A DNA stretch of 59,215 nt from NCBI GenBank assembly GCA_964544585.1, contig CAZJBV010000007.1, forward strand, positions 1 through 59,215, read 5' to 3'. Each line of letters opens with the position of its first letter. Positions within the stretch are counted from its first letter, which is position 1. The notes beneath the pieces are model-generated. The model saw nothing but the letters and a program-made list of their open reading frames with translations. It made no database searches and was not told the DNA's origin. The DNA comes from an uncultured Gammaproteobacteria bacterium. Its GTDB lineage: Bacteria > Patescibacteriota > Microgenomatia > 2-02-FULL-39-11. The position numbers were made by a program, and so were the translations under genes. Shown here in pieces: positions 12,834-57,898 of this stretch.

Positions 12834-12839
12834 GCACAA

Positions 12840-12868
12840 ATTCTAACAAATACTTACCTCCTTGACAA
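12840..12868 (-). promoter_or_regulatory. Probable promoter of tRNA-Ile, overlapping the end of the four-helix-bundle gene
   Basis: TTGTCA-17 nt-TAGAAT on the minus strand. Confidence 0.55.
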
Positions 12869-13225: not shown

Positions 13226-13237
13226 TTCTCTTCTCTC

Positions 13238-13302
13238 TTATCTTTTATCATTTATCTTTTATCTCCATATCTCATATCCCTTATCTTTTATCTTCATATC
13301 TT
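13238..13302. repeat. TATC heptamer array upstream of the four-helix-bundle gene
   Basis: Nine TATC cores at 13239/46/53/60/68/75/82/89/97 (7-8 nt spacing). Confidence 0.85.
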
Positions 13303-13303
13303 C

Positions 13304-15652: not shown

Positions 15653-15692
15653 ATTTTTTGAAGCCTTCCCCTAAAGGCTGAAACCCCGTACC

Positions 15693-15711
15693 GTCCCGAT
15701 TTATTCGGGAC
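15693..15711. repeat. Palindrome of the 'cccga..tcggg' family
   Basis: gtcccga-tttat-tcgggac; relatives at 8588-8605 and 18644-18662. Confidence 0.7.
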
Positions 15712-33357: not shown

Positions 33358-33360
33358 CCT

Positions 33361-33831
33361 ATGACTATTAGAAACTGTACTCCAGCAGATATCGATCAGG
33401 TCAGACAACTTGTAAATATTTGCAAACCATTAGGACTTCATCGAAAAGGTACGTATTGGGTACTTTTTACATATTTCAACGATTCCTGCTTTGTTCTTGA
33501 AAAAGATAAAAAAATAGTTGGATTTATATCCGGTTTAAAGAGTACTTCTCAAAAAGGTGTCTTTCATATCTGGCAAATAGGAGTTCTCCAATTGCATCGA
33601 GGTCAAGGACATGCTTATAGATTACTTACCAAGATTCTCGCAAGAGCAAAAGAGCTTAAATGCGACAAAATTCAATTCACAATTGAAGTAGATAACGACA
33701 AAAGCCTAGGATTATTTACTAAATTTGCCCAAAAAAATCACCTTTCCATAAAGAAACTCTATCATATTAGCTATTATGACAGCCTGTCAGGAGAGAGGGA
33801 AAACGAAGATGCTTACGAATATACAATATAA
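33361..33831 (+). CDS. GNAT-family acetyltransferase (EctA-like)
   Basis: IVGFISG, WQIGV...HRGQG.A, N..SLGLF.KFA. Confidence 0.75.
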   Translation: MTIRNCTPADIDQVRQLVNICKPLGLHRKGTYWVLFTYFNDSCFVLEKDKKIVGFISGLKSTSQKGVFHIWQIGVLQLHRGQGHAYRLLTKILARAKELKCDKIQFTIEVDNDKSLGLFTKFAQKNHLSIKKLYHISYYDSLSGERENEDAYEYTI

Positions 33832-33855
33832 ACAACTTTCCAGCATTTTCCTTAC

Positions 33856-33895
33856 TTGACAAAAACTCCTAAGTATTGTACTATTTAGTACAATA
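33856..33895 (+). promoter_or_regulatory. TA operon promoter with palindromic operator
   Basis: TTGACA-17 nt-TACTAT, overlapped by tattgtacta-tt-tagtacaata (33874-33895). Confidence 0.75.
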
Positions 33896-34170
33896 TGGTA
33901 CAAAAGATCGATGTCTCCAAGGCTAGAACTGAATTACCCAAGATTATGGAAGAGGCTTATTTTGAAGATCAACAGTTCATTCTTCTAAGAAGGGGTATTC
34001 CTATGGCAGCCATTGTCGGAATCAACAAAATCATGAATAACAAATTAGCTAAAACTTCCAAGAAAAAAGAAATAACCAGATTATTTGGTATCTGGAAAAA
34101 GAAAAGAGAATCCACTATCGAGATTGCCAATAATCTTAGAGAGAAGGCGTGGAAATATCATGCTAGTTGA
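33895..34170 (+). CDS. Phd/YefM-family antitoxin
   Basis: IDVSKARTELP.I......F.L.RRG.PMAAIV. Confidence 0.8.
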   Translation: MVQKIDVSKARTELPKIMEEAYFEDQQFILLRRGIPMAAIVGINKIMNNKLAKTSKKKEITRLFGIWKKKRESTIEIANNLREKAWKYHAS

Positions 34171-34531
34171 TTCTACAGTCTTCATCGATTATCTTCGAGG
34201 AAATAATAAAGCTAAAGAATTCTTGTTTCAGAATAAACATCTTATAACCAGTGTTGTCGTCGTCATGGAAATAATTGTTGGCTTTTCTAGTAAAAAAGAT
34301 ACTTTTGATTTCCTTCACTTGCTCGAAGAGCTAGATATAGAAATTATTCACATTTCCTCATCCATTTCTTATAAAGCCTTTGAGTTATTTCAACAATATT
34401 TCCGTTCGGGACTAGGCATAGCAGATAGTTTCATTGCTGCAACTGCCCAGGAAGAAAAACAGGCAATAGCCACACACAATACGAGACATTTCTCCCAACT
34501 GGAACATTTTGACATTTTACAACCTTATTAG
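34160..34531 (+). CDS. VapC/PIN-domain toxin
   Basis: MLVDSTVFIDYLR, VVMEI, GIADSFIAATA, THNTRHF. Confidence 0.9.
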   Translation: MLVDSTVFIDYLRGNNKAKEFLFQNKHLITSVVVVMEIIVGFSSKKDTFDFLHLLEELDIEIIHISSSISYKAFELFQQYFRSGLGIADSFIAATAQEEKQAIATHNTRHFSQLEHFDILQPY

Positions 34532-34538
34532 AAGATCA

Positions 34539-36020
34539 TTAATGAGGTTTATTGAGAACTATCGGTTTCGGCCTCGTCATTGCCTCCAAAGTGTATCGTA
34601 TCCCTTGTACCCCCACCCCGCTTCCTTTTATCCCTAAAAATGGAAAGTGATCAGGTCCTCTTTGAGGCTTGCTATTGACTTGTACCGATCCCACATCCAG
34701 TTTTTGTCCCAATTTTATACCCGCTCCCTCATCATTGGTAAATATCGACGCCTGAAGTCCATACATCGATTGGTTAACAATCGAAACAATCTCCTCCATT
34801 GACTTAAATCGGAAAAAGGACACCACCGGCCCAAAGGTCTCCACTCTCACTACCTCCATACTCGGCTTAACCTGATCCAATATTGTCGGCTCAATATATA
34901 GCCCTACTCTTTTACCTCCCAAAACTACTTTTGCCCCATTTACTTTCGCCATAATAATCCTTTTTTCTATTTCCTCAGCAGCCAAATCAGAAATTACCGG
35001 TCCCAAATTATTTTTCTCTATCCTCGGATCCCCCATCTTAAAATGTTCTTTTGTTTTTTTAACTACCATAGGAATAAGTTTACCAATCGTATCAGGAAAT
35101 CCTAAAACATACTTTATCGCCGTACATCTTTGTCCCGAATATGAAAACGCGCCTTTAACAATCTCTGTAGCAGTCGCCTCCATATCGCAATCCGGAAGAA
35201 CAATCGCCGGATTATTTCCCCCGCACTCAAAAAGTAATGGAATCATCCCCACTTTTTCCGATATCCTCTCGCCTATCTGCGACGATCCCGTAAAGGTCAC
35301 CATATCTACACCCTTGTGAGTCACAATATAGTCTCCAATCGTACTTCCCTCTCCAGTTACAGTATTCAAAACCCCAGCCGGAACCCCGGCTTTTTGAAAA
35401 ATATACGAAAGATGCAAAGAGGAAATCGCTCCCGATGTAGGCGGCTTAAAAAGTACTGCATTCCCAGTTGCTAAAGCCGGCGCAATCTTTGCCACAGACA
35501 AATTGACAGGATAGTTAAATGGCGCAATAGCCACAATCACTCCCAAAGGCACCCTTTCTATAATCGCCATCTTTGTTTGATCATATCCAGGAAACGCTTC
35601 TCCCGAGAGTTCCTCCCCTTTAAGATTCAATGCTTCATTGGCAAAATAGTCTATCATATCAGCTGATCTCAATATCTCATCTTTGGCCTCAGCATGGGAT
35701 TTACCAATTTCTCTTATAAGAAGTGTCGTCAAGTAGTGCTCGTGCTCTCTTATCCAATCAGCAGCAAGATGTAATACTTTTACCCTCTTAATCATTGGTA
35801 CTTTCTGCCATTCTTTTTGGGCCACATGAGCATCCCGTATACAATCATCAATTTCCGAAAAAGACACGGCCGGCACTCTCCCCATCACTTTTTCGTCAAT
35901 TGGTGAAATAATATCTATCCACTTGCCGGAAATCGGCTCCATCCATTTACCATTACAAAGATATTTATAATTAGGAGGAGTTTTATTGTCGTGAATATGC
36001 GAAAAATTGTCCTTAGGCAT
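34539..36020 (-). CDS. gapN: NADP-dependent non-phosphorylating glyceraldehyde-3-phosphate dehydrogenase (ALDH family)
   Basis: IAPFNYPVNL, FKPPT.G, FTGSS, ECGG, FSYSGQRCTA, ETFGPV, PQRGPDHFPFLG.KGSG.GVQGIRY. Confidence 0.85.
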   Translation of the reverse strand: MPKDNFSHIHDNKTPPNYKYLCNGKWMEPISGKWIDIISPIDEKVMGRVPAVSFSEIDDCIRDAHVAQKEWQKVPMIKRVKVLHLAADWIREHEHYLTTLLIREIGKSHAEAKDEILRSADMIDYFANEALNLKGEELSGEAFPGYDQTKMAIIERVPLGVIVAIAPFNYPVNLSVAKIAPALATGNAVLFKPPTSGAISSLHLSYIFQKAGVPAGVLNTVTGEGSTIGDYIVTHKGVDMVTFTGSSQIGERISEKVGMIPLLFECGGNNPAIVLPDCDMEATATEIVKGAFSYSGQRCTAIKYVLGFPDTIGKLIPMVVKKTKEHFKMGDPRIEKNNLGPVISDLAAEEIEKRIIMAKVNGAKVVLGGKRVGLYIEPTILDQVKPSMEVVRVETFGPVVSFFRFKSMEEIVSIVNQSMYGLQASIFTNDEGAGIKLGQKLDVGSVQVNSKPQRGPDHFPFLGIKGSGVGVQGIRYTLEAMTRPKPIVLNKPH

Positions 36021-36096
36021 TAGGTATATAATACAGCGTTGAGCTAGTAAACGTCTAGTAAAAATATTTGAATTCAATTCGGGTCTTTGTTATGCT

Positions 36097-36327
36097 ATGC
36101 ACTATGAGAGTAGAAAGTCCAGAACATGGTGTCACAGAAATGGTGTCACAGAAATGGTAAAGAAAGTAGTAAATAATATAGTAGTTTTCATCGACGATCG
36201 AATTGCGGGAGATGGTGGGGCGCAAACCCCATTAACTCCAGAACAACTTCAGAGAATGGGACGAGACCTAGATACAATGAAAGGTTCAGGAAACCAAAAC
36301 AGCTCTGGAGATTTTCACCAATTTTAA
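36097..36327 (+). CDS. Small hypothetical protein (start uncertain)
   Basis: 76-aa ORF with a 14-bp tandem duplication (atggtgtcacagaa x2) near its 5' end. Confidence 0.3.
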   Translation: MHYESRKSRTWCHRNGVTEMVKKVVNNIVVFIDDRIAGDGGAQTPLTPEQLQRMGRDLDTMKGSGNQNSSGDFHQF

Positions 36328-36364
36328 TAACTCCCCTGCCAGTTTTTAGTAGTCTTCCTAAAAT

Positions 36365-37675
36365 ATGCCAGTAGAAATGTATCCTAGACAACAAGTCAAG
36401 CCATTTCTTGCAGATACTCATTGGTACAGTTTAACACAGCGTTTAAGTAAGACAGAGCTTGTTAAATTAGCATCCCTAAGACAAAAACAAGGTTTCAATG
36501 CAATCCAGCTTGCAGTATGTATACCTCCAGAAGTCGGGCCATTAAATCCAAACGCACAAAGTGAAGTTGGTTTCCCCTGGTTAATAAAAAAACCTTTAGG
36601 AAAAGAGGTTATAGAAATTAACACAAATCCTGCGTATTTAAATTTAGCGAGAGAAAAAATTAAAATGATCAATGAACAAGGGTTAGGTGTAATAGTCTAT
36701 GGAGCGTGGGGACATCAAATCGAATGGACAGGGACAGAAAACATGAAACGTTGGTGGGGAGAACTTACAGATACATTAAATGATTTAGAAGTCATGTACT
36801 CTCTTACTGGAGAAAGCAATATATCTATTGGTTCAGAAAGAAAGCTTTTCCCAGATAAGGCACTGGGAAATTTCGCATCTACAACAGCAAGAAAACAAAT
36901 TCCTGATCCTATAAGATACTTTTTATCTAGATACATAAGACCTCAGGTCTTTGACAAACTCGTAAGAAGAAATGCCCTACACGCAAGAATAGAAGAATGG
37001 AGTGAAGTCCTAGACTTTCTAGCTCAACAAACAGACAAACCATTACTTCTCCACCCTGCAGCTGGATATAATAGTCACAACTCAGTTACAAATCCGGAGC
37101 AACTCTCAGCAGTTACTGCCTACACAGGACATTTTGAGTCTGCAAAAAATAGCTTATGGAAAACTCCTAAAAAATTAAGAAAAGCTCATCCGAAAGTTCC
37201 ATATATAAATCTCGAACCATGGTATGAAGGTATTAAAAATAAGTTTTGGACAGAAGATCAACTATTTGGATTTTGGACATCGATGCTTTCAGGAGCGGCT
37301 GCCCACTGTTATGGAGCGCAAGGTGTGTGGAATGTAGGAAGAACAAATGATAATTTCCTAAATTACTGGGGAACCCAAACATATGAAGAAGCCCTAGCAA
37401 GTAAAACACCTCAGCTACTTGGGAGATCTTTTGCTGAGTTACAAGCATTCCTGTCTGGGGAAAAAGGTCAAGAATTTAATGTAAAAACGACAGGAAATGA
37501 ATTGACCGAAATTGGAATGAGAACCAAAAGTAGGAAACAAGTTATTTATTATCCTCATACACAAGTCATTCAAGAGATCCAACAAGGTGATGGCTATTGG
37601 AATCCATTAGAAGCCGAATATATCAATCCAGCAGCCTCATCCATACCAAACCAATTAGTTATTTTTAGAAATTAA
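36365..37675 (+). CDS. DUF4038 / apiosidase-like (GH140-related) glycoside hydrolase domain protein
   Basis: FLADT.WY, RQKQGFNAIQ, ..GE.N, LEPWYEG, G..AHCYG..G.W. Confidence 0.7.
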   Translation: MPVEMYPRQQVKPFLADTHWYSLTQRLSKTELVKLASLRQKQGFNAIQLAVCIPPEVGPLNPNAQSEVGFPWLIKKPLGKEVIEINTNPAYLNLAREKIKMINEQGLGVIVYGAWGHQIEWTGTENMKRWWGELTDTLNDLEVMYSLTGESNISIGSERKLFPDKALGNFASTTARKQIPDPIRYFLSRYIRPQVFDKLVRRNALHARIEEWSEVLDFLAQQTDKPLLLHPAAGYNSHNSVTNPEQLSAVTAYTGHFESAKNSLWKTPKKLRKAHPKVPYINLEPWYEGIKNKFWTEDQLFGFWTSMLSGAAAHCYGAQGVWNVGRTNDNFLNYWGTQTYEEALASKTPQLLGRSFAELQAFLSGEKGQEFNVKTTGNELTEIGMRTKSRKQVIYYPHTQVIQEIQQGDGYWNPLEAEYINPAASSIPNQLVIFRN

Positions 37676-37686
37676 TATAACCCGCA

Positions 37687-38139
37687 TTACATCAATTCAC
37701 TACTATCCAAAAGTATCGTCACCGGCCCGTCATTTACTATATCCACACTCATATAAGCCCCAAATTCCCCAGTCTGAACATTCTTCACTCCTAAAGTCTT
37801 AAGTTTGTTTACAAAATATTGATAAAGCTTATTGGCAACTTCAGGCTTTGCCGCTTGTATAAATGAAGGTCTTCTCCCTCCACTTAAATCCGCATAAAGC
37901 GTAAATTGAGAAACGACCAAAACACTTCCTTCGGAATCTTTAATCGACTTATTCATCTTATTATTCTCATCACTCATTACTCTTAGATTCACAATCTTTT
38001 CCGCAAGTAAATCTGCTTCTTTTTCAGTATCCCCCTCTTTCACCCCCAACAAAATCACATACCCATTCCTAATTTGTCCGATAACTTTATTATCGATGGT
38101 AACTTTTCCGGCAGTCACCCGTTGAAGTAAGATTCTCAC
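37687..38139 (-). CDS. dtd: D-aminoacyl-tRNA deacylase
   Basis: MRILLQRV, LVVSQFTLYAD, GRRPSF, FGAYM.V.IVNDGPVT. Confidence 0.96.
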   Translation of the reverse strand: MRILLQRVTAGKVTIDNKVIGQIRNGYVILLGVKEGDTEKEADLLAEKIVNLRVMSDENNKMNKSIKDSEGSVLVVSQFTLYADLSGGRRPSFIQAAKPEVANKLYQYFVNKLKTLGVKNVQTGEFGAYMSVDIVNDGPVTILLDSSELM

Positions 38140-38190
38140 TAGTACATTTTATGTTAAATCAATATATTAAAACAATGTATAATTCTACCC

Positions 38191-39324
38191 ATGGATAAGT
38201 TTGACGTTGCAGTTATAGGCGCTGGGGTTGTAGGGCTTGCTATCGCGAGAGAATTTGCTATCAATGGAAAAAAAGTAATAGTTTTTGAAAGAAATCCATC
38301 ATACGGGGCTGAAACATCCTCACGAGGATCAGGGGTAATACATAGCGGCATATATTACGACAAAAAAACACAGCCTCTAAAAGCGAGTCTCTGTGTTCAA
38401 GGAAACCCTCTCCTCTATGAATATGCTAAAGCCAAAAAAATACTTCATAAAAAACTTGGAAAAATTATTGTAGCAACTGACAACGAAGAAGCCGAAAAGA
38501 TTGATAAATTAAGAAAAAATGGAATAAACAATGGAGTAAACGATCTTGAAGAGCTCTCAGAAGAACAAGTACGCACAAAAGAACCACATGTAAAATGTAT
38601 AAAAGGATTATATTCTCCCTCCACCGGTATCGTCGATCCATTAGGGTTAATGAATGGATTAAAAATGGATTTTGAGGATAAAGAAGGCGTATTAAGGGAA
38701 AACTCACCAGTTGCTTATGGAGAAGTTACAAATGAAGGGATAGTTCTTGATATCGAGGGAACAAAACCAGAAAGAATTATCTTCAGTACAGTAATAAACA
38801 GCGCCGGATTAAATGCAATAGAAGTAGCCAGAAATATCCAAGGGTTAGATAAAAAACATATTCCCGAAAATAATTATTCCAAAGGATATTACTACCGCCT
38901 AAAAGGGCAATCCCCATTTCACCATCTCATCTATCCGCTCCCAGTTCAAAGAGGTCTAGGCATCCATGCAACTCTAGACATAGAAAATAATACTCGGTTT
39001 GGACCGAACAACGAACAGGTTAAAAATGTGGATTATGCATTTATAGATGATCAAGACGAATCTCGAAAAGAGTTATTCGTAAAAGCAATCAAAAGATATT
39101 ACCCTTCTATAATGTATGATTTATTAAAACCAGATCATACTGGAATTAGACCACAGATTAGTTTTGGAGGATTTTTATTCCCAGATTTTGTAATCCAAGG
39201 GAAAAACGTACACAACATTCCTAGACTTATAAACCTCTTCGGTATTGAATCGCCTGCTTTGACTTCCTCATTGGCTATAGCAAACTATGTATATGCCATG
39301 GCGGAGAATAAAATCACTAACTAA
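38191..39324 (+). CDS. FAD-dependent oxidoreductase (L-2-hydroxyglutarate oxidase LhgO-like)
   Basis: IGAGVVGLA, ETSSR.SGVIHSGIYY, KG.YY, LIYP.P, GIH.T.D, GIRP, NLFGIESP.LTSSLAIA. Confidence 0.85.
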   Translation: MDKFDVAVIGAGVVGLAIAREFAINGKKVIVFERNPSYGAETSSRGSGVIHSGIYYDKKTQPLKASLCVQGNPLLYEYAKAKKILHKKLGKIIVATDNEEAEKIDKLRKNGINNGVNDLEELSEEQVRTKEPHVKCIKGLYSPSTGIVDPLGLMNGLKMDFEDKEGVLRENSPVAYGEVTNEGIVLDIEGTKPERIIFSTVINSAGLNAIEVARNIQGLDKKHIPENNYSKGYYYRLKGQSPFHHLIYPLPVQRGLGIHATLDIENNTRFGPNNEQVKNVDYAFIDDQDESRKELFVKAIKRYYPSIMYDLLKPDHTGIRPQISFGGFLFPDFVIQGKNVHNIPRLINLFGIESPALTSSLAIANYVYAMAENKITN

Positions 39325-39628
39325 GCCGGTTATTTAGCCTTTGCAAATCGTTCTTTAGAACAAAAACTCTTTCTACTTTTCCTTGAACAATTTTAGCCCC
39401 AAAATCAAAAAATTCACCGCATTTTGGACAATCGCCTATGAAATCATCTATTCTTCCATCAAGAAGAACATCTACTCCTTTCAATTCTTCTACCTCTTCT
39501 CCCAATTTATAGTGGTTTACACAACTACCAAAATCACCCATAAAATGAGTTTGTAATTCCCAAGTAGTCTTTTTATTACATTTGGGACAAACGATAGTAG
39601 TATGTAAATTCCAATATTGAGAACACAT
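39317..39628 (-). CDS. Small Zn-finger hypothetical protein
   Basis: CPKC ... CPKC. Confidence 0.6.
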   Translation of the reverse strand: MCSQYWNLHTTIVCPKCNKKTTWELQTHFMGDFGSCVNHYKLGEEVEELKGVDVLLDGRIDDFIGDCPKCGEFFDFGAKIVQGKVERVFVLKNDLQRLNNRLS

Positions 39629-39636
39629 ATTTATTT

Positions 39637-40068
39637 TTACTTCTTTTTTTTAACCATCCATTCCAACAGTGTTCCAGGCGCAACTATTTTTAAAGGTAGA
39701 AATTTTTTGCCTATCTCCTCTCGTAATAGATGCTTTTTATCAAGGCTTGCAAGATAATCACATTTGGTAAGTATCGCTCCGGCAATAAGATGAGCATCCT
39801 CTATATCAACTAAATCTTTATAAACTTCAATTTCCTCTGTTGTAATGCTTTTTCGTATCATCAATCCACTCATAGAAATAAAATCTTCCGTTTCTTTCCG
39901 CGTCTTTTTTATCTTTTTTTCTTTCTCCAAAACTTCCTCTATGGCAGTCTGCGACGAAATACCAATTATTTTTCCTTTCTTTATATATTCAATTAATAAA
40001 GCTGAACCGCCGGTCGAAGAAAGTATGGAAGCGATGATAACCGAAGCGTCAAAAAATACTCTCATCAA
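39637..40068 (-). CDS. PIN-domain toxin (putative TA, TIGR00305-like)
   Basis: RVFFDASVIIAS, D.EDAHLIAGA...KCDYL.SLD.KHLL. Confidence 0.85.
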   Translation of the reverse strand: MMRVFFDASVIIASILSSTGGSALLIEYIKKGKIIGISSQTAIEEVLEKEKKIKKTRKETEDFISMSGLMIRKSITTEEIEVYKDLVDIEDAHLIAGAILTKCDYLASLDKKHLLREEIGKKFLPLKIVAPGTLLEWMVKKKK

Positions 40069-40349
40069 TTTGTGGATTCAGACAAATCCTCTTCTACTTT
40101 TTTTAACAAAGATTTAGGTATCTTATCCTCTTTTAAGAATTCATCAATCTCACGATCACTATACACTCTATATGGAGCAGGTCTACTTATTTTTTGTGCC
40201 TCAATCACTACTTTGTTGCCCTCTTTCTTGGCTTTAACAATATCGCCACTATCTATACCCATCTCATCTCTCCATCTTTTTGGCAGTGTCACCATACCCT
40301 TACCAAGTACCTTTAACCATTCTTCCTGATCATTTAGTACTGACCGCAT
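40065..40349 (-). CDS. AbrB/MazE-family antitoxin
   Basis: KGMVTLPKRWRDEMGI..GD.V; promoter TTGACA-17 nt-TAAAAT upstream. Confidence 0.85.
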   Translation of the reverse strand: MRSVLNDQEEWLKVLGKGMVTLPKRWRDEMGIDSGDIVKAKKEGNKVVIEAQKISRPAPYRVYSDREIDEFLKEDKIPKSLLKKVEEDLSESTN

Positions 40350-40436
40350 ATATCTCCTTAGTTTTACTTTCTAACTTCTTACATTTTAAACTTACAAACT
40401 GTCTTTGTCAAATAGAAATTGTTATAATCCACTTGT

Positions 40437-41177
40437 ATGAACCTTCCTCAAAATCCTTGGGACATTCTTGCCAAAAAAACCTTTAACACAAATTGGGATA
40501 CAGCCTCAATTGATCCACGTGCCGCAGATAACATAATCATCGCCTGGCCTGCAATCTTAAATGTAATCTCAAAGGAATTTCCCGAAACACAAGGCATAAA
40601 AGTATTAGATTTTGGCTGTGGCACCGGAGGATTTTGCACTAAATTATCTAGTTTGGGATTTGCTGTAACTGGTATTGACCCCTCAGTCGAGATGATTAAT
40701 ACGGCCAAACACCATTCTCCCCCATCTATCAAATATATTGTTAGCGATCAGAAAATTATTCCTTCTCTAGGCACATTTCATATCATAACCTCAATCATGA
40801 CTCTACCTTTTATTGAAAATATTGAAGAAACTTTCGCTTTTATTTCCAAGGCGCTAAATCCAGGTGGACTATTCTTGTCAGCGGTTTTCAATCCAGATTG
40901 GGTGAAAGCATGTCTTAAATTGAAAGTAGCCTTTACTGACTTTGATTCCATAGAAAATCCAAAAAATGGTTGGAAAACATTTAGTGACGGAATTAAAATA
41001 CCGGTCTATATAAGAAACGCAGGAGAATATGATGCTTTAGCAAAAAAGAATGGATTAAAAAAGATATTGGAAGAATATCCTCCATACAGCGAAAAATTTA
41101 AAAAATATATCAAAGGTTCTCACTACGATCGCCCAACCACAATCTCTCAATATCTTATATTAGGATATAAAAAATAA
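40437..41177 (+). CDS. Class I SAM-dependent methyltransferase
   Basis: VLDFGCGTG, GIDPS.EMI, L.PGG.F. Confidence 0.88.
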   Translation: MNLPQNPWDILAKKTFNTNWDTASIDPRAADNIIIAWPAILNVISKEFPETQGIKVLDFGCGTGGFCTKLSSLGFAVTGIDPSVEMINTAKHHSPPSIKYIVSDQKIIPSLGTFHIITSIMTLPFIENIEETFAFISKALNPGGLFLSAVFNPDWVKACLKLKVAFTDFDSIENPKNGWKTFSDGIKIPVYIRNAGEYDALAKKNGLKKILEEYPPYSEKFKKYIKGSHYDRPTTISQYLILGYKK

Positions 41178-41202
41178 GCATAACTTCTTATTTAGTCTTA
41201 CT

Positions 41203-41250
41203 AAACTTCTCCTCTACCTTCCCCCAATTCACCACATTCCACCATGCCTT
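41203..41250 (-). repeat. Diverged copy of the sodA 3' end (copy 4)
   Basis: 39/48 nt identical to 44956-45003; reads [23 protein letters not shown]. Confidence 0.9.
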
Positions 41251-41268
41251 TATATAATAAGATCCAAT

Positions 41269-41649
41269 CTAATCAAACAATTTTAATTCGGCAATACCTT
41301 CAAAATCTTTTTTATTAAGTGTTGCCAATTCGGCACCATTTACCATCGCCGTTGCCGCAATTGCCGCATCGGGAAATTCTATCGCTTTTACAGCTCTTGC
41401 CAACTCTCCTGCCTTTTTCGCTACATCGAAGGAATAAGGAAAGATTGCAATTTTCTCAATTGTAGAAAGCATTATTTGTTCCTTCTCCGTATCCATCATG
41501 CTTTTCCCTTCATATAATTCTTGAATACTAAGAATTGAAATCGCTACATTATCTGATCCCAACTTTTTAATAAGTGTATTTAAAGGAGAATTATCCGGAG
41601 ATTTTTGGCGTAGATGATCAATAATAATATTGGTATCCACTACTACCAT
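41269..41649 (-). CDS. VapC/PIN-domain toxin
   Basis: VVDTNIIIDHLR, SIQEL, FPDAAIAATA, TLNKKDF. Confidence 0.9.
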   Translation of the reverse strand: MVVVDTNIIIDHLRQKSPDNSPLNTLIKKLGSDNVAISILSIQELYEGKSMMDTEKEQIMLSTIEKIAIFPYSFDVAKKAGELARAVKAIEFPDAAIAATAMVNGAELATLNKKDFEGIAELKLFD

Positions 41650-41948
41650 TCATTTTTCCTTCTCTTCGAAGCTGCAAGCTCCAATTTTCTTCTCTTTTTT
41701 TCCAACTTTTTTTCCTCGGGAGTCTCCGGACCCCACGCTCCCCGAGTTTTTTTCAGAACTTCCAAATACAAACTATCATCATGTTCAATAGTTTTCGGTA
41801 TCACTTTCATTGGCACCACGTAAATACCTTCCCCTATAACAGAGAATTTGAGCGGCACCTCAGGAGTAATTCCCAACTGTTTCCTAATTTTGCTTGGAAT
41901 TACCACTTGCCCCTTATTATTGGGTATGACAAGATCTCCTACATTCAT
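41643..41948 (-). CDS. AbrB/MazE-family antitoxin
   Basis: NNKGQVVIPSKIRKQLGI. Confidence 0.88.
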   Translation of the reverse strand: MNVGDLVIPNNKGQVVIPSKIRKQLGITPEVPLKFSVIGEGIYVVPMKVIPKTIEHDDSLYLEVLKKTRGAWGPETPEEKKLEKKRRKLELAASKRRKNEW

Positions 41949-42026
41949 ACTAGTATGATTTTACTACTTTTGTGAGATTTGTCAACTGCCAACTTGACAA
42001 ATAAAGTAGAGAGAGAGAATAAAAAC

Positions 42027-42278
42027 ATGGATATAGAGACTAATGTAAGAATATTGCCATTGGGAATACCAGAAGGAGCCGCTTCTGTAGATGGACTAGC
42101 GCCTGATGGAACAAGAATAGAAGTATTATTTCAATATCATGCGAGACGCCTTGGCCAACATTTTGAGCCTATAAGGAGTGATCAAAATACGAATTTAATG
42201 ATTAGATCAAGATTATCTTATGGAAACGGAGATGATCGCGGGTCTACCCATCCTCACAAACCTATTGACGAGTGCTAA
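42027..42278 (+). CDS. Small hypothetical protein
   Basis: 83-aa ORF after a shared TTGACA...GA-rich leader, converging on sodA-end copy 3. Confidence 0.45.
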   Translation: MDIETNVRILPLGIPEGAASVDGLAPDGTRIEVLFQYHARRLGQHFEPIRSDQNTNLMIRSRLSYGNGDDRGSTHPHKPIDEC

Positions 42279-42279
42279 T

Positions 42280-42321
42280 AAATCTCTTTTCCACCTCTTC
42301 CCAATTCACCACATTCCACCA
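42280..42321 (-). repeat. Diverged copy of the sodA 3' end (copy 3)
   Basis: 36/42 nt identical to 44956-44997; reads WWNVVNWEEVEKRFISTRQ*. Confidence 0.9.
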
Positions 42322-42446
42322 GACTAGCTTTCTTTTTTCCCTTCCCATCAACCTCTTAATCTATAATCCTACGAAATAAACAAATTTAGAAGGATACTTA
42401 TCCCATAAAACTTGACAATTTTATAGGAATCATCTATACTTAATCA

Positions 42447-43577
42447 ATGATCAAAAGGGTCTATGATCTGGCCAAGAAAATTAAGCCCAATAAGGCCGTA
42501 ATTATCCTGGGGCCCAGACGTACAGGAAAAACTACCCTCCTCAACCAATTTCTTGCCAATACCAAACTTAAATACAAGCTGGCTTTAGGCGATGAAATTA
42601 CTGTACAACAAGCCCTGTCTACCCAAGATCTTTACCAACTCAAAAACTTTATTGGTCCCAACGAAATGTTGATTATAGACGAAGCCCAAAAAATCCCCAA
42701 CATTGGCCTAAACCTTAAAATCATTATTGACAATATACCCGGTATCTACGTTGTCGCCACTGGCTCCTCTTCATTTGATCTCGCCGGGCAAATTGGTGAG
42801 CCGCTCGTAGGCCGAAAAATAAGCCTTTTTCTCTACCCTATCTCCCAACTGGAACTTACTCCGACTCTATCCCCCTTTGATCTAACGCAAAAACTTCCAG
42901 AGTGGCTCGTCTTTGGAAGCTACCCCCAAGTCATAGAAAGCACTTACCGGGATGAAAAAATTGAAATTTTAAATGAAATTGTCAATTCCTACCTCCTCAA
43001 AGACATTTTAGAGCTCGAAAGAGTTAAGGGAGCCAAAGCTCTTCTTGATTTGTTGCGCCTGATAGCGTTTCAAATAGGCAACGAAGTTTCTCTCTCTGAA
43101 CTCAGTCGCGAAGCCGGTTTAGACTTTAAAACAGTATCCCGCTATTTGGATTTGTTCGAAAAAACTTTCATCCTCTATAATTTGCGGGGATATTCTCGAA
43201 ACCTTCGCTCTGAACTCAATCGAAAAAGCAAATACTACTTTCTCGACAACGGCATTCGTAATGCCGTAATCAGCCAATACAACGACTTGGTACAAAGAAA
43301 CGACATTGGCGTCTTATGGGAAAATTTCCTCGTCAGCGAACGCTTAAAGACCCAAGCTTACCTTCCAATCTACTCAGGAAATTATTTTTGGCGCACCTGG
43401 GAAGGCAAAGAGATAGACTGGGTCGAGGAAAGAGAGGGTGGACTGTTCGCCTGGGAATTTAAATGGTCTCCCCAGAAAAAATCTAAAAACCAGAAAACTT
43501 TCTTAGCCGTCTACCCCAACGCCATCCTAAAGATCATTACTTCCGAAAACTATCTCTCATTCGTCACCGAAAAATAA
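42447..43577 (+). CDS. AAA+ ATPase with DUF4143 domain
   Basis: GPRRTGKT, IIDEAQK, ATGSSS, GSYP, KYYFLDNGIRN, WENF, YFWRT..GKEID. Confidence 0.92.
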   Translation: MIKRVYDLAKKIKPNKAVIILGPRRTGKTTLLNQFLANTKLKYKLALGDEITVQQALSTQDLYQLKNFIGPNEMLIIDEAQKIPNIGLNLKIIIDNIPGIYVVATGSSSFDLAGQIGEPLVGRKISLFLYPISQLELTPTLSPFDLTQKLPEWLVFGSYPQVIESTYRDEKIEILNEIVNSYLLKDILELERVKGAKALLDLLRLIAFQIGNEVSLSELSREAGLDFKTVSRYLDLFEKTFILYNLRGYSRNLRSELNRKSKYYFLDNGIRNAVISQYNDLVQRNDIGVLWENFLVSERLKTQAYLPIYSGNYFWRTWEGKEIDWVEEREGGLFAWEFKWSPQKKSKNQKTFLAVYPNAILKIITSENYLSFVTEK

Positions 43578-43730
43578 TTTCCGCCTCCAAAACCACTCTT
43601 AGCTTAGCCATACTTGACAAACAAAGCAGAAAGAGAATTACTCGGGGGGTGATTAAGATGTCAATAAATTATGAAATATATTTTCGATATGATGTTACTA
43701 AAAGTACGCCTTAGAGGTGTCTCAGATCGT

Positions 43731-43778
43731 AAACCTCTTCTCTACCTCTCCCCAATTCACCGCATTCCACCAAGCCTT
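43731..43778 (-). repeat. Diverged copy of the sodA 3' end (copy 2)
   Basis: 43/48 nt identical to 44956-45003; reads KAWWNAVNWGEVEKRFTI*; followed by a 19-bp match (43709-27 = 44901-19). Confidence 0.92.
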
Positions 43779-43803
43779 GATAAATTAGCTTGTGGTCTGA
43801 TCT

Positions 43804-44214
43804 TTAGGGTTCTTTCCTCTGGATACCCTTAATGTGGTCAAAATCTTTATCGAAACTTAATATTGTCCTTGTCTTCAATCTCTCCATATGAGCTATATTC
43901 AAAGCATCAACAAAATCAACTGAAAGCAAAGAGAATAATTCTAAAGCTCGAAAAAATGCTTTTTTATGAGTTAATTTTAACCCTGGCAAGGCTATAATCG
44001 CCGTTAAATATGTTTTGATAGACTCTCTTGAAAGATGATAAAGCTTTTTTGAGGAAAGTACCTGCACCGCCTCAATTATTGTTGCCTCCGAAGTCACTAC
44101 TTTATAAGATCCTTCCTCCAATCTTTTAAAAATCTTTCTACTCCTTTCGGATTGCTCGGGATTATCTCTGGTTAAATGACGTATAATGAGGTTTGTATCA
44201 AGAAAATCAAGCAT
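43804..44214 (-). CDS. VapC/PIN-domain toxin
   Basis: FLDTNLIIRHL, TIIEA, DFVDAL, ILSFDKDFD. Confidence 0.9.
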   Translation of the reverse strand: MLDFLDTNLIIRHLTRDNPEQSERSRKIFKRLEEGSYKVVTSEATIIEAVQVLSSKKLYHLSRESIKTYLTAIIALPGLKLTHKKAFFRALELFSLLSVDFVDALNIAHMERLKTRTILSFDKDFDHIKGIQRKEP

Positions 44215-44220
44215 ATATCC

Positions 44221-44487
44221 TTATAAACCTTCTTTGGCTACTTCTTCGCTATGTTCTTCAGCGGCAATCATAGACATATCCCTAAAAGAGACTGGTTTTG
44301 GCAGAGCTGGCACCACCTGATAGGTCGCATCCACCAATGAGCCGGCTGGAACAATTTTCACCGAGCGCCGCTCTACCTTAAAAGCTATTTTATCTCTCGG
44401 CTTGACCCCAAGTAGTTTTCTCAAACTCTTTGGTATCGTAATTTGACCCTTTGGACTGACACTGCCAATATATGTATAAGTTTGCAT
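44221..44487 (-). CDS. AbrB/MazE-family antitoxin
   Basis: VSPKGQITIPKSLRKLLGV...DKI.F. Confidence 0.9.
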   Translation of the reverse strand: MQTYTYIGSVSPKGQITIPKSLRKLLGVKPRDKIAFKVERRSVKIVPAGSLVDATYQVVPALPKPVSFRDMSMIAAEEHSEEVAKEGL

Positions 44488-44601
44488 GGTTTTACTTGTA
44501 AATAATGGTACAACCTATTATAACTATTCTTACCATATATTATAATCTTTGTCAATCCATCAACTTGACAAACAAAGCAGAGAGAGAGAGAGAATAAGAA
44601 C

Positions 44602-44874
44602 ATGGAAGAGGAACCAAAAGACAGCACAGAGATTATTGTTAACCAGCCACCTGAAAAACCTGCAGACCTTGCTCGAATTATTGCTCCAGATAGCTCCAGT
44701 GGTGATTTGACTGCTGAATCGTTGACAGGAGAAATGAAATCATTTTGGGAAAGCCATTCTGATGTTGCACAGGGAAGAGCTCAAAAACCTCAAACTGTTG
44801 CTGGAAGACCAGTCAATGCTTCTCTAGCTACAACAATGCAAGTAACAGAAACAAACAAGGCACTTAAGAAATGA
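44602..44874 (+). CDS. Small hypothetical protein
   Basis: 90-aa ORF after a shared TTGACA...GA-rich leader, converging on sodA. Confidence 0.45.
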   Translation: MEEEPKDSTEIIVNQPPEKPADLARIIAPDSSSGDLTAESLTGEMKSFWESHSDVAQGRAQKPQTVAGRPVNASLATTMQVTETNKALKK

Positions 44875-44940
44875 AAACACTAAGCACACCTTTAAACACA
44901 CCTTAGAGGTGTCTCAGATAAGACACCTTTGGTATATCGT

Positions 44941-45567
44941 TTATTTTAACTGAGTAAACCTCCTCTCCACCTCTCTCCAATTCACTACATTCCACCAAGC
45001 CTTAATATAATCAGCCCTCCTGTTTTGATATTTAAGATAATACGCATGTTCCCAAACATCTACACCTAAAATCGGAGATTTACCCTGCCTGCCGGCAGGC
45101 ACGGCTTCCATCCAAGGATTATCCTGATTAGGTGTGTCAGTAATCGACAGTTTCCCAACATCTGAAATAAGCCACGCCCATCCGCTTCCAAATCGTCCAA
45201 TACCAGCTTTAGAAAAAGCCTCTTGAAACTTGGCAAAATCTCCAAACGTACTTTTTATCGCCTCTGCAACCCTTCCGCTAGGTTCTCCCCCTTTTTTCGG
45301 CCCCATTATCTGCCAAAAAAAGCTATGGTTTATATGCCCTCCCCCATTATTTCTGACTTTCGTTCTCACCTCGGCAGACACCTGATCCAAATTCTTCATC
45401 AATTCCTCCGGTGACATATTCAGAAATTTGTCTTGCCCCTTCAAAAACTCATTTAAGTTTGTCACATAGGCCCCGTGATGCTTGTCATGATGAATTTTCA
45501 TCGTCTGCTCATCAATATAAGGCTCCAAAGCGTTATACGCATAAGGCAATTCAGGTAATGTAAACAT
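44941..45567 (-). CDS. sodA: Fe/Mn superoxide dismutase
   Basis: [47 protein letters not shown]. Confidence 0.96.
45084..45104. repeat. 21-bp 'PAGRQ' element, in frame in sodA
   Basis: cctgcctgccggcaggcacgg; removing it restores MEGK. Confidence 0.9.
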
Positions 45568-57179: not shown

Positions 57180-57599
57180 TCAGCTATCTAAAGCACGATT
57201 GACCAACCGATCGGCTTCCCAATTTTTTTCTCTTGGTATAAAAGTATAAGAAACATTTCCACCTACTTCCTGTTCCAGCTCCCTTATCTTTACCAATAGT
57301 TCCCGCAGCTTTGCCTCCTTCACTTTAAATAGTCCATTCAATTGATTAACTACCAAATTTGAATCAAGAAAAAAATTCTTTTTTGTCTCATTGGAAAATT
57401 GGAAAATTGGAAAATTGCTTTTTATCCACTTTAAAGCTTCTCTCACCGCCGTATATTCGGCCACATTATTAGTCGTCTCCCCAATTCTTTTCCCAATCTC
57501 TTTTATCTTGTATCCTTTATCATCCTTCACTACCACCCCAATTGCCCCCGGCCCCGGATTCCCCCTCGCCCCTCCATCAGTAAAAACTAAAAGTTGCAT
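57180..57599 (-). CDS. rnhA: Ribonuclease HI family protein
   Basis: FTDGGARGNPGPG, TNNVAEY.A, LDSNLVVNQL.G.FKVK, IPRE.NWEADRL.N.ALD. Confidence 0.92.
   Translation of the reverse strand: MQLLVFTDGGARGNPGPGAIGVVVKDDKGYKIKEIGKRIGETTNNVAEYTAVREALKWIKSNFPIFQFSNETKKNFFLDSNLVVNQLNGLFKVKEAKLRELLVKIRELEQEVGGNVSYTFIPREKNWEADRLVNRALDS
57390..57417. repeat. 8-bp tandem repeat (attggaaa x3.5) inside rnhA
   Basis: attggaaa attggaaa attggaaa attg; encodes SNFPIFQFSN. Confidence 0.85.
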
Positions 57600-57634: not shown

Positions 57635-57898
57635 ATGCTAAATTGGAATGTCGATGAAAAGCGAACAAAAAAAGAAGATCCCGAGGGATACAAACTATGG
57701 AGATTGGAACAACTTCTCAATTATGGCTTCGAAAAAGGCGAAATAGATATAAATGAACTTAAAAAAAGTTGGCCTAAAATAAAACATAATATCGATCCCT
57801 ACATAGCCAGGTTTACTGAATTTCTCTTATGGGGAAAACTATACTCACTTCCAGACAATTTAAATTCCTGGAACTGGCCGCCAAGGAAAAAGAAATAA
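57635..57898 (+). CDS. Small partner protein of the AbiEii-like toxin (putative antitoxin)
   Basis: 87 aa, 'WRLEQLLNYG' motif; overlaps the downstream gene. Confidence 0.65.
   Translation: MLNWNVDEKRTKKEDPEGYKLWRLEQLLNYGFEKGEIDINELKKSWPKIKHNIDPYIARFTEFLLWGKLYSLPDNLNSWNWPPRKKK

Follow-up and report, generated by a model that had tools for sequence, protein, structure and literature searches.

Organization of the sodA locus

The locus lies within a 59,215-nt stretch of DNA, referred to here as the window, from an uncultured groundwater bacterium of the CPR. An intact sodA gene is followed by an array of self-promoted units of 1.0-1.5 kb, designated D, C, B and A with increasing distance from the gene, which are delimited by further copies of the sodA 3' end (Table 1). 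The final 16-25 codons of sodA occur four times, all in direct orientation, and a repeat search of the window assigns them to a single family (D1) of four 74-nt direct copies. The three displaced ends are designated f1, f2 and f3.

The cargo comprises three AbrB/PIN toxin-antitoxin (TA) pairs, one DUF4143 ATPase (PDC-S01) and one methyltransferase, which makes the array a small addiction/defence islet. Pfam upheld the identities proposed in a first-pass annotation (SodA, three MazE/AbrB and PIN pairs, and AAA_14+DUF4143), and its view that each unit has its own promoter was borne out by a promoter scan. It described modules of similar layout with a convergent small ORF, but at 39637-41200 the convergent gene encodes a 246-aa SAM methyltransferase. 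The small ORF of unit D is an orphan: it matches no Pfam or NCBIfam model, and a search of 1.84 billion representatives turned up no relative. The promoter block of this unit includes the small ORF start, a palindrome (TTGTCAA-N9-TTGACAA) and a (GA)7 tract at 44580-44593. In unit C, the ATPase matches the PADLOC candidate defence gene PDC-S01 (E = 3e-141) and has its own predicted promoter (11/12).

The distal flank of the insertion site is dtd, and sodA-dtd-aldh synteny is kept in relatives. Between the array and dtd lies more lineage-specific material (38191-39628), which is absent between sodA and dtd in four relatives (L084, L180, L184 and L185) and for which nhmmer found no bounding sodA fragment. 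As the first-pass annotation had stated, no integrase is present in cis: a recombinase is absent from all of the ~8 units found in four genomes. No integrase or dedicated recombinase was found in the units, the related loci or the window, apart from an Xer-like gene beside divIC, 30 kb from the array, which is the window's sole tyrosine recombinase.

Table 1. Features of the sodA locus, with positions in the window
Feature	Position	Strand	Basis
sodA, Fe/Mn superoxide dismutase, 208 aa, intact	44941-45567	-	Pfam Sod_Fe_N + Sod_Fe_C
D1 copy, genuine sodA end	44941-45014		Repeat search
Proximal repeat copy (last sodA codons)	core 44977-44997	-	D1 + core match
Hairpin terminator between sodA and convergent small ORF	44903-44932		Terminator scan
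Terminator copies (part of repeat D9)	44898-44928; remnant 43706-43736		Repeat search, local alignment
Unit D small ORF, 90 aa, convergent with sodA	44602-44874	+	
Unit D divergent promoter block	44526-44606		Repeats D3/D7, alignments
Promoter-block copies	44557-44606; 41978-42031; remnant 43608-43636		
Unit D predicted promoter	44555-44526	-	Promoter scan
Unit D AbrB/MazE-fold antitoxin	44221-44487	-	Pfam MazE_antitoxin
Unit D PIN toxin	43804-44214	-	Pfam PIN
Displaced end f1	43722-43806, core 43752-43772	-	
D1 copy 2	43716-43789		Repeat search
Unit C cargo, DUF4143/AAA_14 ATPase	42359-43577, ORF 42447-43577	+	Pfam
Unit C predicted promoter	42412-42440		Promoter scan
Displaced end f2	42262-42321, core 42301-42321	-	
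D1 copy 3	42265-42338		Repeat search
Unit B overall	41269-42278		Pfam
Unit B convergent small ORF	42027-42278	+	
Unit B divergent promoter block	41958-42031		
Unit B AbrB antitoxin	41643-41948	-	
Unit B PIN toxin	41269-41649	-	
Displaced end f3	41188-41261, core 41224-41244	-	
D1 copy 4	41188-41261		Repeat search
Unit A overall	39637-41177		Pfam, promoter scan
Unit A SAM methyltransferase, 246 aa, convergent	40437-41177	+	
Unit A promoter	40411-40383	-	
Unit A AbrB antitoxin	40065-40349	-	
Unit A PIN toxin	39637-40068	-	
Zn-ribbon ORF	39317-39628	-	Pfam
FAD oxidoreductase	38191-39324	+	Pfam
dtd, D-Tyr-tRNA deacylase (conserved distal flank)	37687-38139	-	Pfam

The repeated sodA ends

The array is 100% identical in independent assemblies from at least eight sequencing runs and in an NCBI MAG. 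Assemblies of single runs from different samples cross the entire array, again at 100% identity (L164, 32902-44927; L171, 34539-44591; L165, 37930-44927), which argues against an assembly chimera. Short-read contigs do end in or beside the repeats (41219/41248, 42300, 44591 in three contigs, and 44905/44927), as a collapsed or chimeric assembly of strain variants might produce. However, separate samples reproduce the array, and the perfect identity between repeats, 22 nt at most, is too little to mislead a k=31 assembly; such an artefact is thus extremely improbable. No circular or alternative junction was seen, and every same-strain contig carries the identical array.

A 21-nt core, CCAATTCACNNCATTCCACCA, matches only these four sites in the window when up to two mismatches are allowed, with 0 matches expected by chance (100 shuffles). 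Similarly, an nhmmer profile of sodA ends picks out only these four sites in the window, at E values between 1e-17 and 9e-12, and its fifth-best match has E = 7. The core (TGGTGGAATGNNGTGAATTGG) encodes the invariant WWNVVNW of SodA and is more conserved than the adjacent tail, with differences among copies at 4/63 versus 18/72 positions (p = 0.004). Neither dyad symmetry nor a single-stranded fold was found in it. Copies share perfectly identical stretches of no more than 21-22 nt, a short length for RecA-dependent recombination.

On recomputation, the copy identities reported earlier (43/48, 36/42 and 39/48) proved exact, and the three copies translate as described, each with its own stop codon. 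For instance, f1 reads, after a stop codon, as FIKAWWNAVNWGEVEKRFTI and a stop, and f2 as WWNVVNWEEVEKRFISTRQ and a stop. The description of the changes as mostly synonymous did not hold, with 6 synonymous versus 9 non-synonymous changed codons; of the latter, however, 8 affect positions that are variable among 107 real SodAs (P = 3e-4). Since the substitutions follow SodA protein constraints, the comparison supports the original view that the displaced copies are formerly functional sodA ends rather than decayed in-place duplicates. A protein-database search returned no SodA with an exact match to any of the three displaced tails.

On the 5' side of the core, every copy is either degenerate or lacks sodA sequence, whereas the reading frame is kept from the core to the stop codon, a pattern that would place the crossover at the core. 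In f1, homology reaches ~50 nt upstream of the core, where a stop codon and an indel (a 3-nt gap) occur, and the core-to-stop part conforms to SodA; in f2, sodA homology begins exactly at the core. By copy, the left homology boundaries lie at -50, -17, 0, +3 and +5 nt relative to the core. The repeated material exceeds the sodA end, as a promoter block and a terminator recur alongside it.

Variation among relatives and arrays behind other genes

As the first-pass annotation had anticipated, the sodA-dtd gap is variably filled in related Candidatus Gottesmanbacteria, being empty, occupied by one TA unit or holding different cargo. Three relatives (L084, L184 and L185) have the empty site sodA-dtd-aldh, and L180-183 carry a single unit behind sodA. 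The locus is a real accretion site, and within one clade of these bacteria insertions have recurred at the sodA 3' end.

Unit B is orthologous to the lone sodA-downstream unit of L180, another species, with 72% identity for AbrB, 56% for PIN and 70.5% for DNA over 756 nt, while the flanking core genes are 74-76% identical. Because its divergence resembles that of the flanks and L180 has no displaced sodA fragment, vertical inheritance fits better than mobility, and unit B appears to have been passed down together with its flanks and not to have moved recently. Taken together, f2 and unit B reproduce the order in which L180 natively has its sodA end and unit, so f2 was once the working end.

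Two further relatives have displaced sodA ends of their own. In L001, a perfect 39-nt sodA-end repeat flanks 2 kb of other cargo; in L179, the displaced end differs in codon usage from the resident end. The same conserved non-sodA motif adjoins the displaced copy in both. No second sodA-end copy was found at ~155 other SodA loci.

The proposal of a site tied specifically to sodA was not supported, and the process is not confined to this gene. A DUF4143 cassette 76% identical to that of unit C, with DNA homology covering exactly 42359-43573, occurs on another contig (L190) in an array of the same kind that follows an Rce1-like gene; there, 7 of 9 changed codons are synonymous. Fragments of two different target genes therefore border the same cassette, a finding that a single-site integrase does not readily explain. 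On unrelated viral contigs (L201/L202), three different DUF4143 ATPases each have behind them a partial or complete copy of a flanking phosphoesterase gene, and these contigs also hold a 97-nt copy of the other flank.

Origin of the array

Tandem accretion through Campbell-type insertion at the sodA 3' end is our best reading, held tentatively and at somewhat less than an even chance. Small circular DNAs would recombine reciprocally with sodA at the short core. Each incoming molecule would supply a stop-terminated replacement for the SodA tail, located 3' of the core that it carries, in most cases a terminator, and in addition a convergent gene and self-promoted cargo, so that SodA would stay intact and the previous tail would be displaced downstream. 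The tandem array would grow by repeated insertions, with the TA pairs counteracting the loss of units. Since the units encode no recombinase, the enzyme must act in trans; we favour a site-specific recombinase that the host or a helper element provides, as happens with cis-mobilizable elements (CIMEs). Against this reading stand the missing recombinase, core dyad and circular junction, the varying left boundaries, the flank-like divergence of unit B, the two target genes of the DUF4143 cassette and the failure to find a SodA with any of the displaced tails, and the position of unit A distal to unit B means that a strict order of insertion at sodA needs an extra event.

A live though unlikely rival is homology-driven stacking, in which allelic DNA of related strains (a sodA 3' end plus downstream unit) is taken up by presumably competent bacteria. 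Integration would occur through a RecA-dependent single crossover, once a fragment had circularised, or through homology-facilitated illegitimate recombination with its anchor in sodA or dtd, dispensing with both a dedicated recombinase and an attachment site. The events that persist would be those leaving short, diverged duplications, since longer repeats would allow the insert to be lost again by recombination. In favour of this rival, units D, C and B each have the look of the DNA that naturally follows sodA in a relative such as L180, namely tail, terminator, small ORF, promoter block and TA. The recombinase-free units, the variable left boundaries, the position of f3 and unit A next to dtd, as expected of a dtd-anchored event, and the same geometry on the viral contigs also agree with it. 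However, all five fragments begin in the last 93 nt of the 627-nt gene, three of five junctions lie within 6 nt of the core start, and perfect identity between copies is as short as noted above. Likewise, the f1 stretch 5' of the core is not SodA-constrained, although this model has it coding until displacement, and a shared non-sodA motif adjoins the copies in L001 and L179.

Another possible origin is that the sodA 3' end and its downstream unit were tandemly duplicated in place, after which the copies diverged and their cargo was replaced; the repeats themselves would then require no horizontal input. In their right-hand parts, units C and D are indeed close paralogues: 24/25 positions of the promoter block and 21/22 of the terminator are identical, both elements run collinear with the sodA-end copy, and the small ORF has been deleted from unit C. 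We nevertheless judge this origin improbable, as divergence is uneven (2/47 in the promoter/terminator remnants versus 16/78 in the adjacent sodA-like part, p = 0.016) and the tails diverged under SodA constraint. Moreover, the TA pairs are only ~35% identical over short stretches, the displaced and resident ends of L179 differ in codons, the changes in L190 are nearly all synonymous, and f2 plus unit B is orthologous to the native arrangement of L180.

The locus had also been called integron-like. As in integrons, small single-gene or TA cassettes of integron size, without their own recombinase, stand in tandem at one site with a conserved short separator, and the cargo includes defence-type genes and TA pairs, as in sedentary chromosomal integrons. 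A true platform, with a dedicated recombinase, promoterless cassettes, structured sites and a fixed sodA attachment site, is nonetheless highly improbable. IntI is absent, as the sole tyrosine recombinase reaches 67 bits with the integron-integrase model, for which the cut-off is 265; attC hairpins and attI/Pc are also lacking. The core neither folds as a single strand nor has a dyad, the unit boundaries lack inverted repeats, and, in place of co-oriented cassettes without promoters, the units each have a strong promoter of their own and mixed orientations. What separates them is the target's own coding end, that of a housekeeping gene. Integron membership was rejected for want of IntI, an attC-like fold and a shared promoter.

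Displacement of an old gene end by a newly inserted one has precedents among mobile islands, but the present array stands out by its very small units and by their lack of any recombinase. In Streptococcus thermophilus, ICESt1/ICESt3 and CIMEs accrete tandemly at the 3' end of the protein gene fda (PMC5704250). The sodA array shares with them tandem addition, an intact target, direct repeats of the target's 3' end bounding the units and, with CIMEs, the persistence of integrase-less units dependent on an enzyme in trans. It differs in that units in four genomes lack any integrase, relaxase or transfer gene, in unit size (1.0-1.5 kb versus several to tens of kb) and in its CPR host. In Dehalococcoides, islands target the tmRNA gene ssrA with a 20-bp repeat and a conserved 15-bp motif beside each repeat; 16 of 31 carry a serine-recombinase module, and the roughly half without an integration module were interpreted as CIME-like (PMC3146451). 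There too, multiple tandem units bounded by 3'-end repeats stand behind one conserved gene, and a conserved non-gene motif adjoins the repeats (here in L001 and L179), whereas the present target is protein-coding, its tails must stay translatable and a recombinase is wholly absent.

Xer-dependent elements, such as IMEX at dif and the pdif modules of Acinetobacter plasmids, are recombinase-less, often TA-bearing and moved by the host recombinase. The units here are likewise recombinase-less TA modules, and an Xer-like gene is the window's only tyrosine recombinase; yet the core lacks the dif-like arrangement of two inverted arms flanking a spacer, and the sodA locus does not lie at a GC-skew switch. 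In the orphan C-terminal modules of polymorphic toxin genes (CdiA-CT/CdiI, Rhs), displaced 3' ends and companion genes stack downstream after tip replacement at a conserved motif. The sodA array similarly stacks displaced gene ends with small companion genes, presumably after exchange at a conserved motif, but its SodA tails are 9-12 residues without a variable functional domain, and the companion genes are unrelated to SodA function.

The repeated sodA end

Three further copies of the sodA 3' end lie within the 6.8 kb that separate this gene from dtd in the window, and together with the resident end they form a single family of direct repeats. The core common to all of them, CCAATTCACNNCATTCCACCA, matches exactly four places in the window at up to two mismatches and nowhere else, versus none expected in shuffles, and a sodA-end profile search of the 59-kb window recovers only these four copies (E 1e-17 to 9e-12; next best E=7); chance is ruled far out as the source of the repeat. 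The identities that the first-pass annotation had given for the displaced copies (43/48, 36/42 and 39/48) were reproduced exactly, as were the three translations, each closed by its own stop, and Pfam agrees with its SodA, its three AbrB-PIN pairs (MazE/AbrB-fold and PIN) and its DUF4143 ATPase (AAA_14 and DUF4143). It had placed a small convergent ORF in the modules; in unit A this gene is a 246-aa methyltransferase; units D, C, B and A are the cargo modules in order from sodA toward dtd.

Repeats, promoters, displaced gene ends and compared loci
Feature	Locus	Positions	Strand	Remark
Direct 74-nt repeat, true sodA end	window	44941-45014		one family of four copies, repeat search
Direct 74-nt repeat, other copies	window	43716-43789; 42265-42338; 41188-41261		same family
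Displaced sodA ends f1; f2; f3	window	43722-43806; 42262-42321; 41188-41261	minus
Promoter block copies	window	44557-44606; 41978-42031		remnant at 43608-43636
sodA terminator	window	44898-44928		remnant at 43706-43736
Promoters, one in each unit	window	42412-42440; 41985-41958; 40411-40383; 44555-44526		10-11 of 12 positions matched
Perfect 39-nt direct repeat of sodA end	L001	10573-10611; 12583-12621		SodA 80%
Displaced end NVVNWEEVA*	L179			SodA 83%; ~50 nt past stop codon
Motif abutting the displaced end	L001; L179	12560-12582; 4336-4372
Motif	L199; L200	479-496; 199-216	minus
Motif inside sodA	L091; L017	5142-5158; 6800-6816	minus
One unit between sodA and dtd	L180-183			SodA 78%; Gottesmanbacteria RIFCSPHIGHO2_01_FULL_39_10
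Empty site	L084			SodA 79%; dtd 224 nt after sodA
Empty site	L184			SodA 79%; dtd 183 nt after sodA
Empty site	L185			SodA 74%; dtd 9 nt after sodA
Rce1-like CPBP protease gene	L190	3787-4461	minus	3' end repeated at 2525-2573 and 1209-1257

The displaced ends f1, f2 and f3 are all in frame from the core to the stop codon and retain the family pattern WWNxVNW..VE..F. Their codon changes relative to the resident end, previously described as mostly synonymous, proved to be 6 synonymous and 9 non-synonymous; 8 of the 9 lie where 107 real SodAs themselves vary, at four positions (P=3e-4), and the replacements at variable positions are residues found there in real SodAs. The core is better conserved than the adjacent tail (4/63 versus 18/72 differences, p=0.004). 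On its 5' side, the sodA sequence is absent in f2, carries a change at an invariant Asp in f3, and in f1 is broken by a stop codon and an indel and altered at invariant residues; this passage from a constrained core-to-stop segment to a degenerate 5' side places the crossover at the core. In addition, f2 and unit B are collinear with the working sodA end and unit of L180, a Gottesmanbacteria locus (f2 is 88% identical to that end), a sequence match that offers independent support for the tails as former working ends. With their frame kept, their changes following SodA constraint and this match to L180, the displaced copies bear out the proposal that they are ends of once-functional sodA genes. 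A genome in which such a tail is the functional SodA end was also sought: none carries f1, f2 or f3 exactly among the 120 closest SodAs or with a tail-specific query, the best matches covering 6-7 of 9-12 residues.

The repeated block extends beyond the sodA end, since the promoter block and the terminator also recur. The promoter block comprises the palindrome TTGTCAA-N9-TTGACAA and a (GA)n run, and the convergent small ORF has its start codon there. It was rejected as an element-specific signature: its ACTTGACAA box also heads the DUF4143 promoters of the window and of L190, a Logan contig from another project, so part of the repeated block is merely a local promoter consensus. In unit D (44580-44593) the block has a (GA)7 run and 21 nt from TTGACA to the GAATAA box, and in unit B (42009-42018) and L180 (~10885-10916) it has (GA)5 and 17 nt. 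Three independent per-run contigs stop at 44591, within the (GA)7 run; tract length may differ among members of the population, and the small-ORF promoter may then be phase-variable. ARAGORN detected no RNA genes in or near the array, nor did Rfam, run at its gathering threshold for the window and in E-value mode for five related loci.

The array is carried by independent assemblies. Its SodA, DUF4143, PIN and methyltransferase proteins were found on Logan per-run assemblies of at least eight sequencing runs and on the NCBI MAG GCA_016186845.1; same-strain contigs are 99.96-100% identical to the window, and three of them (32902-44927, 34539-44591 and 37930-44927) span the whole array in the same order. 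The longest perfect identity between sodA-end copies is at most 22 nt, and thus too short to mislead assemblers. A collapsed or chimeric assembly, an outcome by which the first-pass annotation itself would fall, consequently has a negligible probability when independent per-run contigs cross the array in one order at near-full identity. Turnover inside this population was not seen among the same-strain contigs, each of which has the identical array. Short-read contigs from several runs end at 41219-41248, 42300 and 44905-44927: at the f3 core, two contigs of one run overlap by exactly 30 nt (41219/41248), and at the f2 core one contig begins at the first base of the core, 42300. This pattern is at most suggestive of excision: the ends at 41219/41248 mismatch the junctions that recombinants of the four copies would have, and runs of high coverage pass straight across. 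The contig ends in the array could stem from assembly-graph branching by minor variants or from plain low coverage.

Occupancy in relatives and a second target gene

The closest SodA loci belong to Candidatus Gottesmanbacteria (CPR/Microgenomates), in which the gene order PBP-PBP-cvpA-murB-sodA-dtd-aldh is conserved. The module variability anticipated downstream of sodA in relatives was indeed found, with sites that are empty, hold one unit, or hold other cargo with its own repeat. The unit of L180-183 comprises a convergent 81-aa ORF, the promoter block of the window, and AbrB and PIN proteins 72% and 56% identical to those of unit B; no second sodA fragment was found in these loci. The L001 repeat encloses a TrmB-HTH/PLD-like gene and a 381-aa ORF, and the displaced end of L179 differs in its codons from the resident end. 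L001 and L179 hold the only convincing second sodA-end copies among 161 SodA loci of other strains, which makes the sodA site a lineage-specific hot spot whose occupancy differs among species. In both, the motif (C)TTGTCCTGAG-N3..21-GTCGAAGGAT lies directly 5' of the displaced end. It also occurs upstream of a DUF4143 cassette in another genome, and its reverse complement is found in frame within sodA of two more species, with the encoded PST(N/S)SG falling in two different loops. The motif has no Rfam match, and the window lacks it.

sodA is not the only target of the process. The closest DUF4143 ATPase homologue outside this strain (P0123, 76% identity) is encoded in L190, where the repeated end is that of an Rce1-like protease gene. 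Each copy keeps the frame and has a stop of its own (FWNMTVALYL* and FWNMTVTLYP*), and 7 of 9 changed codons are synonymous. Both targets, sodA and this gene, carry TGGAAY at the left edge of a possible common core. One L190 unit is the DUF4143 cassette, convergent as in the window; the other carries a TrmB-HTH/PLD-like gene homologous to the sodA neighbour of L001 (30% identity, E 4e-35). DNA homology between the window and L190 is limited to the promoter and ORF (42359-43573), so the cargo is common and the flanking gene-end fragments differ. A generic scan for displaced 3' ends in all compared loci, noisy in GC-rich genomes with dispersed repeats, gave 25 downstream versus 23 control matches, with in-frame gene-end copies only in the window, L001 and L190.

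In the GC-rich IMG/VR contig L201 (4100-9530; the same in L202), three different AAA_14+DUF4143 ATPase genes stand in tandem, each with a metallophosphoesterase gene after it, either complete or as a 5' fragment, and 97 nt of the left flank recur at 96% identity before the second ATPase; the stacked-cassette geometry is similar, in an unrelated lineage. A DUF4143 single-protein search of viral contigs returned none, and an alignment-based search returned four distant loci. In the compared locus L193, the 3' end of a tRNA-Ala(ggc) gene recurs ~55 nt after the gene (CCTCGGGTCCACAA; 6585-6730), which looks like a tiny att-type duplication, and a 66-nt repeat (3878-3943 and 4823-4888, 77% identical) surrounds a polysaccharide-deacetylase unit directly upstream of a DUF4143 gene.

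Further variation lies around sodA itself. The murB-sodA gap of L001 (7513-9847) contains a 125-aa ORF, a TA-like arrangement (87-aa ORF, then PIN gene) and a DHODH-like gene, versus 41 nt in the window, so both sodA flanks are variable in this clade. In the window, guaA and aldh are separated by a GNAT acetyltransferase and another PIN gene (34085-34531), together at 33361-34531; the same-strain contig L164 has a called 91-aa gene adjoining the PIN gene upstream, and guaA and aldh are neighbours in L185. Similarly, an apiosidase-like gene (36365-37675) separates dtd from aldh, which are adjacent in L084 and L180. Both segments are additional insertions specific to the lineage, around which no duplicated gene ends were detected. 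In another sodA locus (L096, WNFM01307535.1, AT-rich), the last 47 nt of the ORF upstream of sodA recur near-perfectly 27 nt downstream (~2053-2173), a simple tandem duplication of a gene end.

Possible routes of accretion

Integrative elements that target gene 3' ends, and their tandem accretion with integrase-less CIMEs, represent an established pattern (PMC5704250), and the array has the geometry of this known process. The original observation is confirmed and its interpretation partly supported; what is notable is the miniature size of units without a recombinase, the CPR host, and the recurrence behind a second target gene with common cargo. A circle bearing a copy of the gene end would insert reciprocally (Campbell-type) at the gene, which would yield the order intact gene, unit, displaced end. 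As in ICE/IME/CIME arrays, direct repeats of the target 3' end bound the units, the target is intact, and relatives show empty or different occupancy; those arrays have a tyrosine or serine integrase in at least one unit or autonomous relative, and here none was found in about eight units of the window, L001, L179 and L190. In Dehalococcoides, 15 of 31 tandem ssrA islands lack an integration module, and a conserved motif that does not derive from the gene abuts every repeat (PMC3146451), analogous to the motif of L001 and L179.

We tentatively favour a site-specific recombinase acting in trans, with a probability approaching even, because in all copies constraint gives way to degeneration at the core, three of five junctions lie no more than 6 nt apart, and perfect identity between copies spans only 21-22 nt. 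Several findings count against such a model. None of about eight units in four genomes (window, L001, L179 and L190) contains a recombinase or integrase, an outcome with a chance of 0.4% if half of such units had one. The core has neither dyad symmetry nor a single-strand fold, no GC-skew switch occurs at the locus (skew is negative across the whole window), and the divergence of unit B from L180 is close to that of the flanking genes (70.5% versus 75.7% and 73.7%). Unit A lies distal to unit B, an order that strict insertion always at sodA does not give. Homology-driven stacking, in which allelic versions of the locus from related strains pile up, accounts for the missing recombinase, for varying left boundaries, and for the resemblance of units D, C and B to the native sodA-downstream region of a relative; it fits poorly with the clustering of junctions at the core, the common abutting motif and the very short perfect identity, and we consider it possible but unlikely. 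In-place tandem duplication is attractive for units C and D only, given the 95-96% identity of their promoter and terminator blocks; divergence of 20% in the sodA-like part beside these blocks (p=0.016) and the SodA constraint under which the tails evolved make this origin improbable.

The integron-like identity originally proposed is very improbable, every defining feature that was tested having failed. The Xer-like gene scores 67 bits on the integron-integrase model versus a cut-off of 265, so IntI is absent; the core and its flanks, taken as single-stranded DNA, have a folding energy of 0 kcal/mol, with no advantage over shuffled sequences, and thus provide no attC; unit boundaries lack inverted repeats; and the cassettes are self-promoted, with genes on both strands and no common Pc promoter. 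The accompanying claim that no integrase acts in cis does stand. With all window ORFs of at least 110 aa scanned with Pfam, the sole tyrosine recombinase is this Xer-like gene (10459-11367), 30 kb from the array beside divIC; its best matches are XerC, XerD and XerA, and the Xer-divIC arrangement is kept in L199, a compared locus. A dif-like site consists of two inverted ~11-bp arms around a 6-8-bp spacer, and chromosomal dif lies at the GC-skew switch. A dif/Xer site at the core was rejected on its asymmetry, the lack of a skew switch, and its sub-repeats (ATTCACCAC / ATTCCACCA, as read from the sequence), which are direct and not inverted. Also rejected as a recombinase was the TrmB-HTH/PLD-like protein encoded beside the target gene in L001 and L190: its HxK...D motif is degenerate in both (E-A-R and H-L-L, respectively), and from its sequence it is more likely a regulator. 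Viral contigs scanned with the degenerate core as an attP-like copy matched only in full-length sod genes of large viruses.

A broader and rather doubtful reading holds that in CPR, and perhaps others, a recombinase in trans stockpiles cassettes at the coding ends of conserved genes, the cassettes supplying substitute ends. This would be a functional integron analogue for TA and defence genes without IntI or attC, and the enzyme could be the single Xer-like recombinase of the host or an unrecognised one. In a variant, DUF4143 ATPase cassettes, which occur in stacks bounded by flank fragments in three unrelated contexts (window, L190 and L201/L202), may promote their own insertion.

CPR/Patescibacteria have very small genomes with few recognisable mobile elements, and to our knowledge their gain and loss of accessory genes is poorly understood. 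The footprint that gene gain has left at the locus, a displaced gene end of short length beside a self-contained unit, is concrete, repeatable and searchable across MAGs. If an enzyme acts in trans and proves to be a host or unrecognised recombinase, such arrays would represent a new stockpiling route for TA and defence genes, and also good markers of strain-level variation. Short in-frame gene-end fragments can, in turn, be miscalled as small genes or pseudogenes and can break short-read contigs.

Cargo and other variable content

The units carry three VapBC-like AbrB/PIN pairs, a DUF4143 ATPase, a SAM methyltransferase and orphan small ORFs. All three pairs match PIN and MazE_antitoxin in Pfam above cut-off, their toxins being predicted; the small antitoxin gene lies directly before its toxin gene, the two overlap by 4 or 7 nt or are separated by 6 nt, and promoters bearing the TTGTCAA...TTGACAA palindrome occur among them. 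The ATPase matches the PADLOC profile PDC-S01 over its full length (E 3e-141; residues 1-373 of the 375-position profile) and is a candidate defence gene. Judged by these matches, the array is best described as a small, putative addiction/defence islet, in which the TA pairs would stabilise the units. The small ORFs were rejected as a conserved element gene, their three versions showing no detectable similarity, and a search of 1.84 billion representatives gave no homologue of the one in unit D.

More TA/defence-type content is present near the window end, with an AbiEii-type nucleotidyltransferase toxin (57829-58491) and an RNase H of the RVT_3-like type (57180-57599). The segment at 8858-18539 contains an HTH protein, tRNA-Met (9577-9650), divIC, the Xer-like recombinase, an aspartyl-protease-like ORF, tRNA-Ile(tat), a 23S-rRNA-intervening-sequence protein and a pair of ~790-aa ORFs, of which the first shows ATPase motifs of the VirD4/TraG-like and HerA-like kinds; the segment may represent either another variable region or an apparatus for transfer or uptake. 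The equivalent Xer-divIC neighbourhood of L199 holds a DUF4143 cassette and a TA pair.
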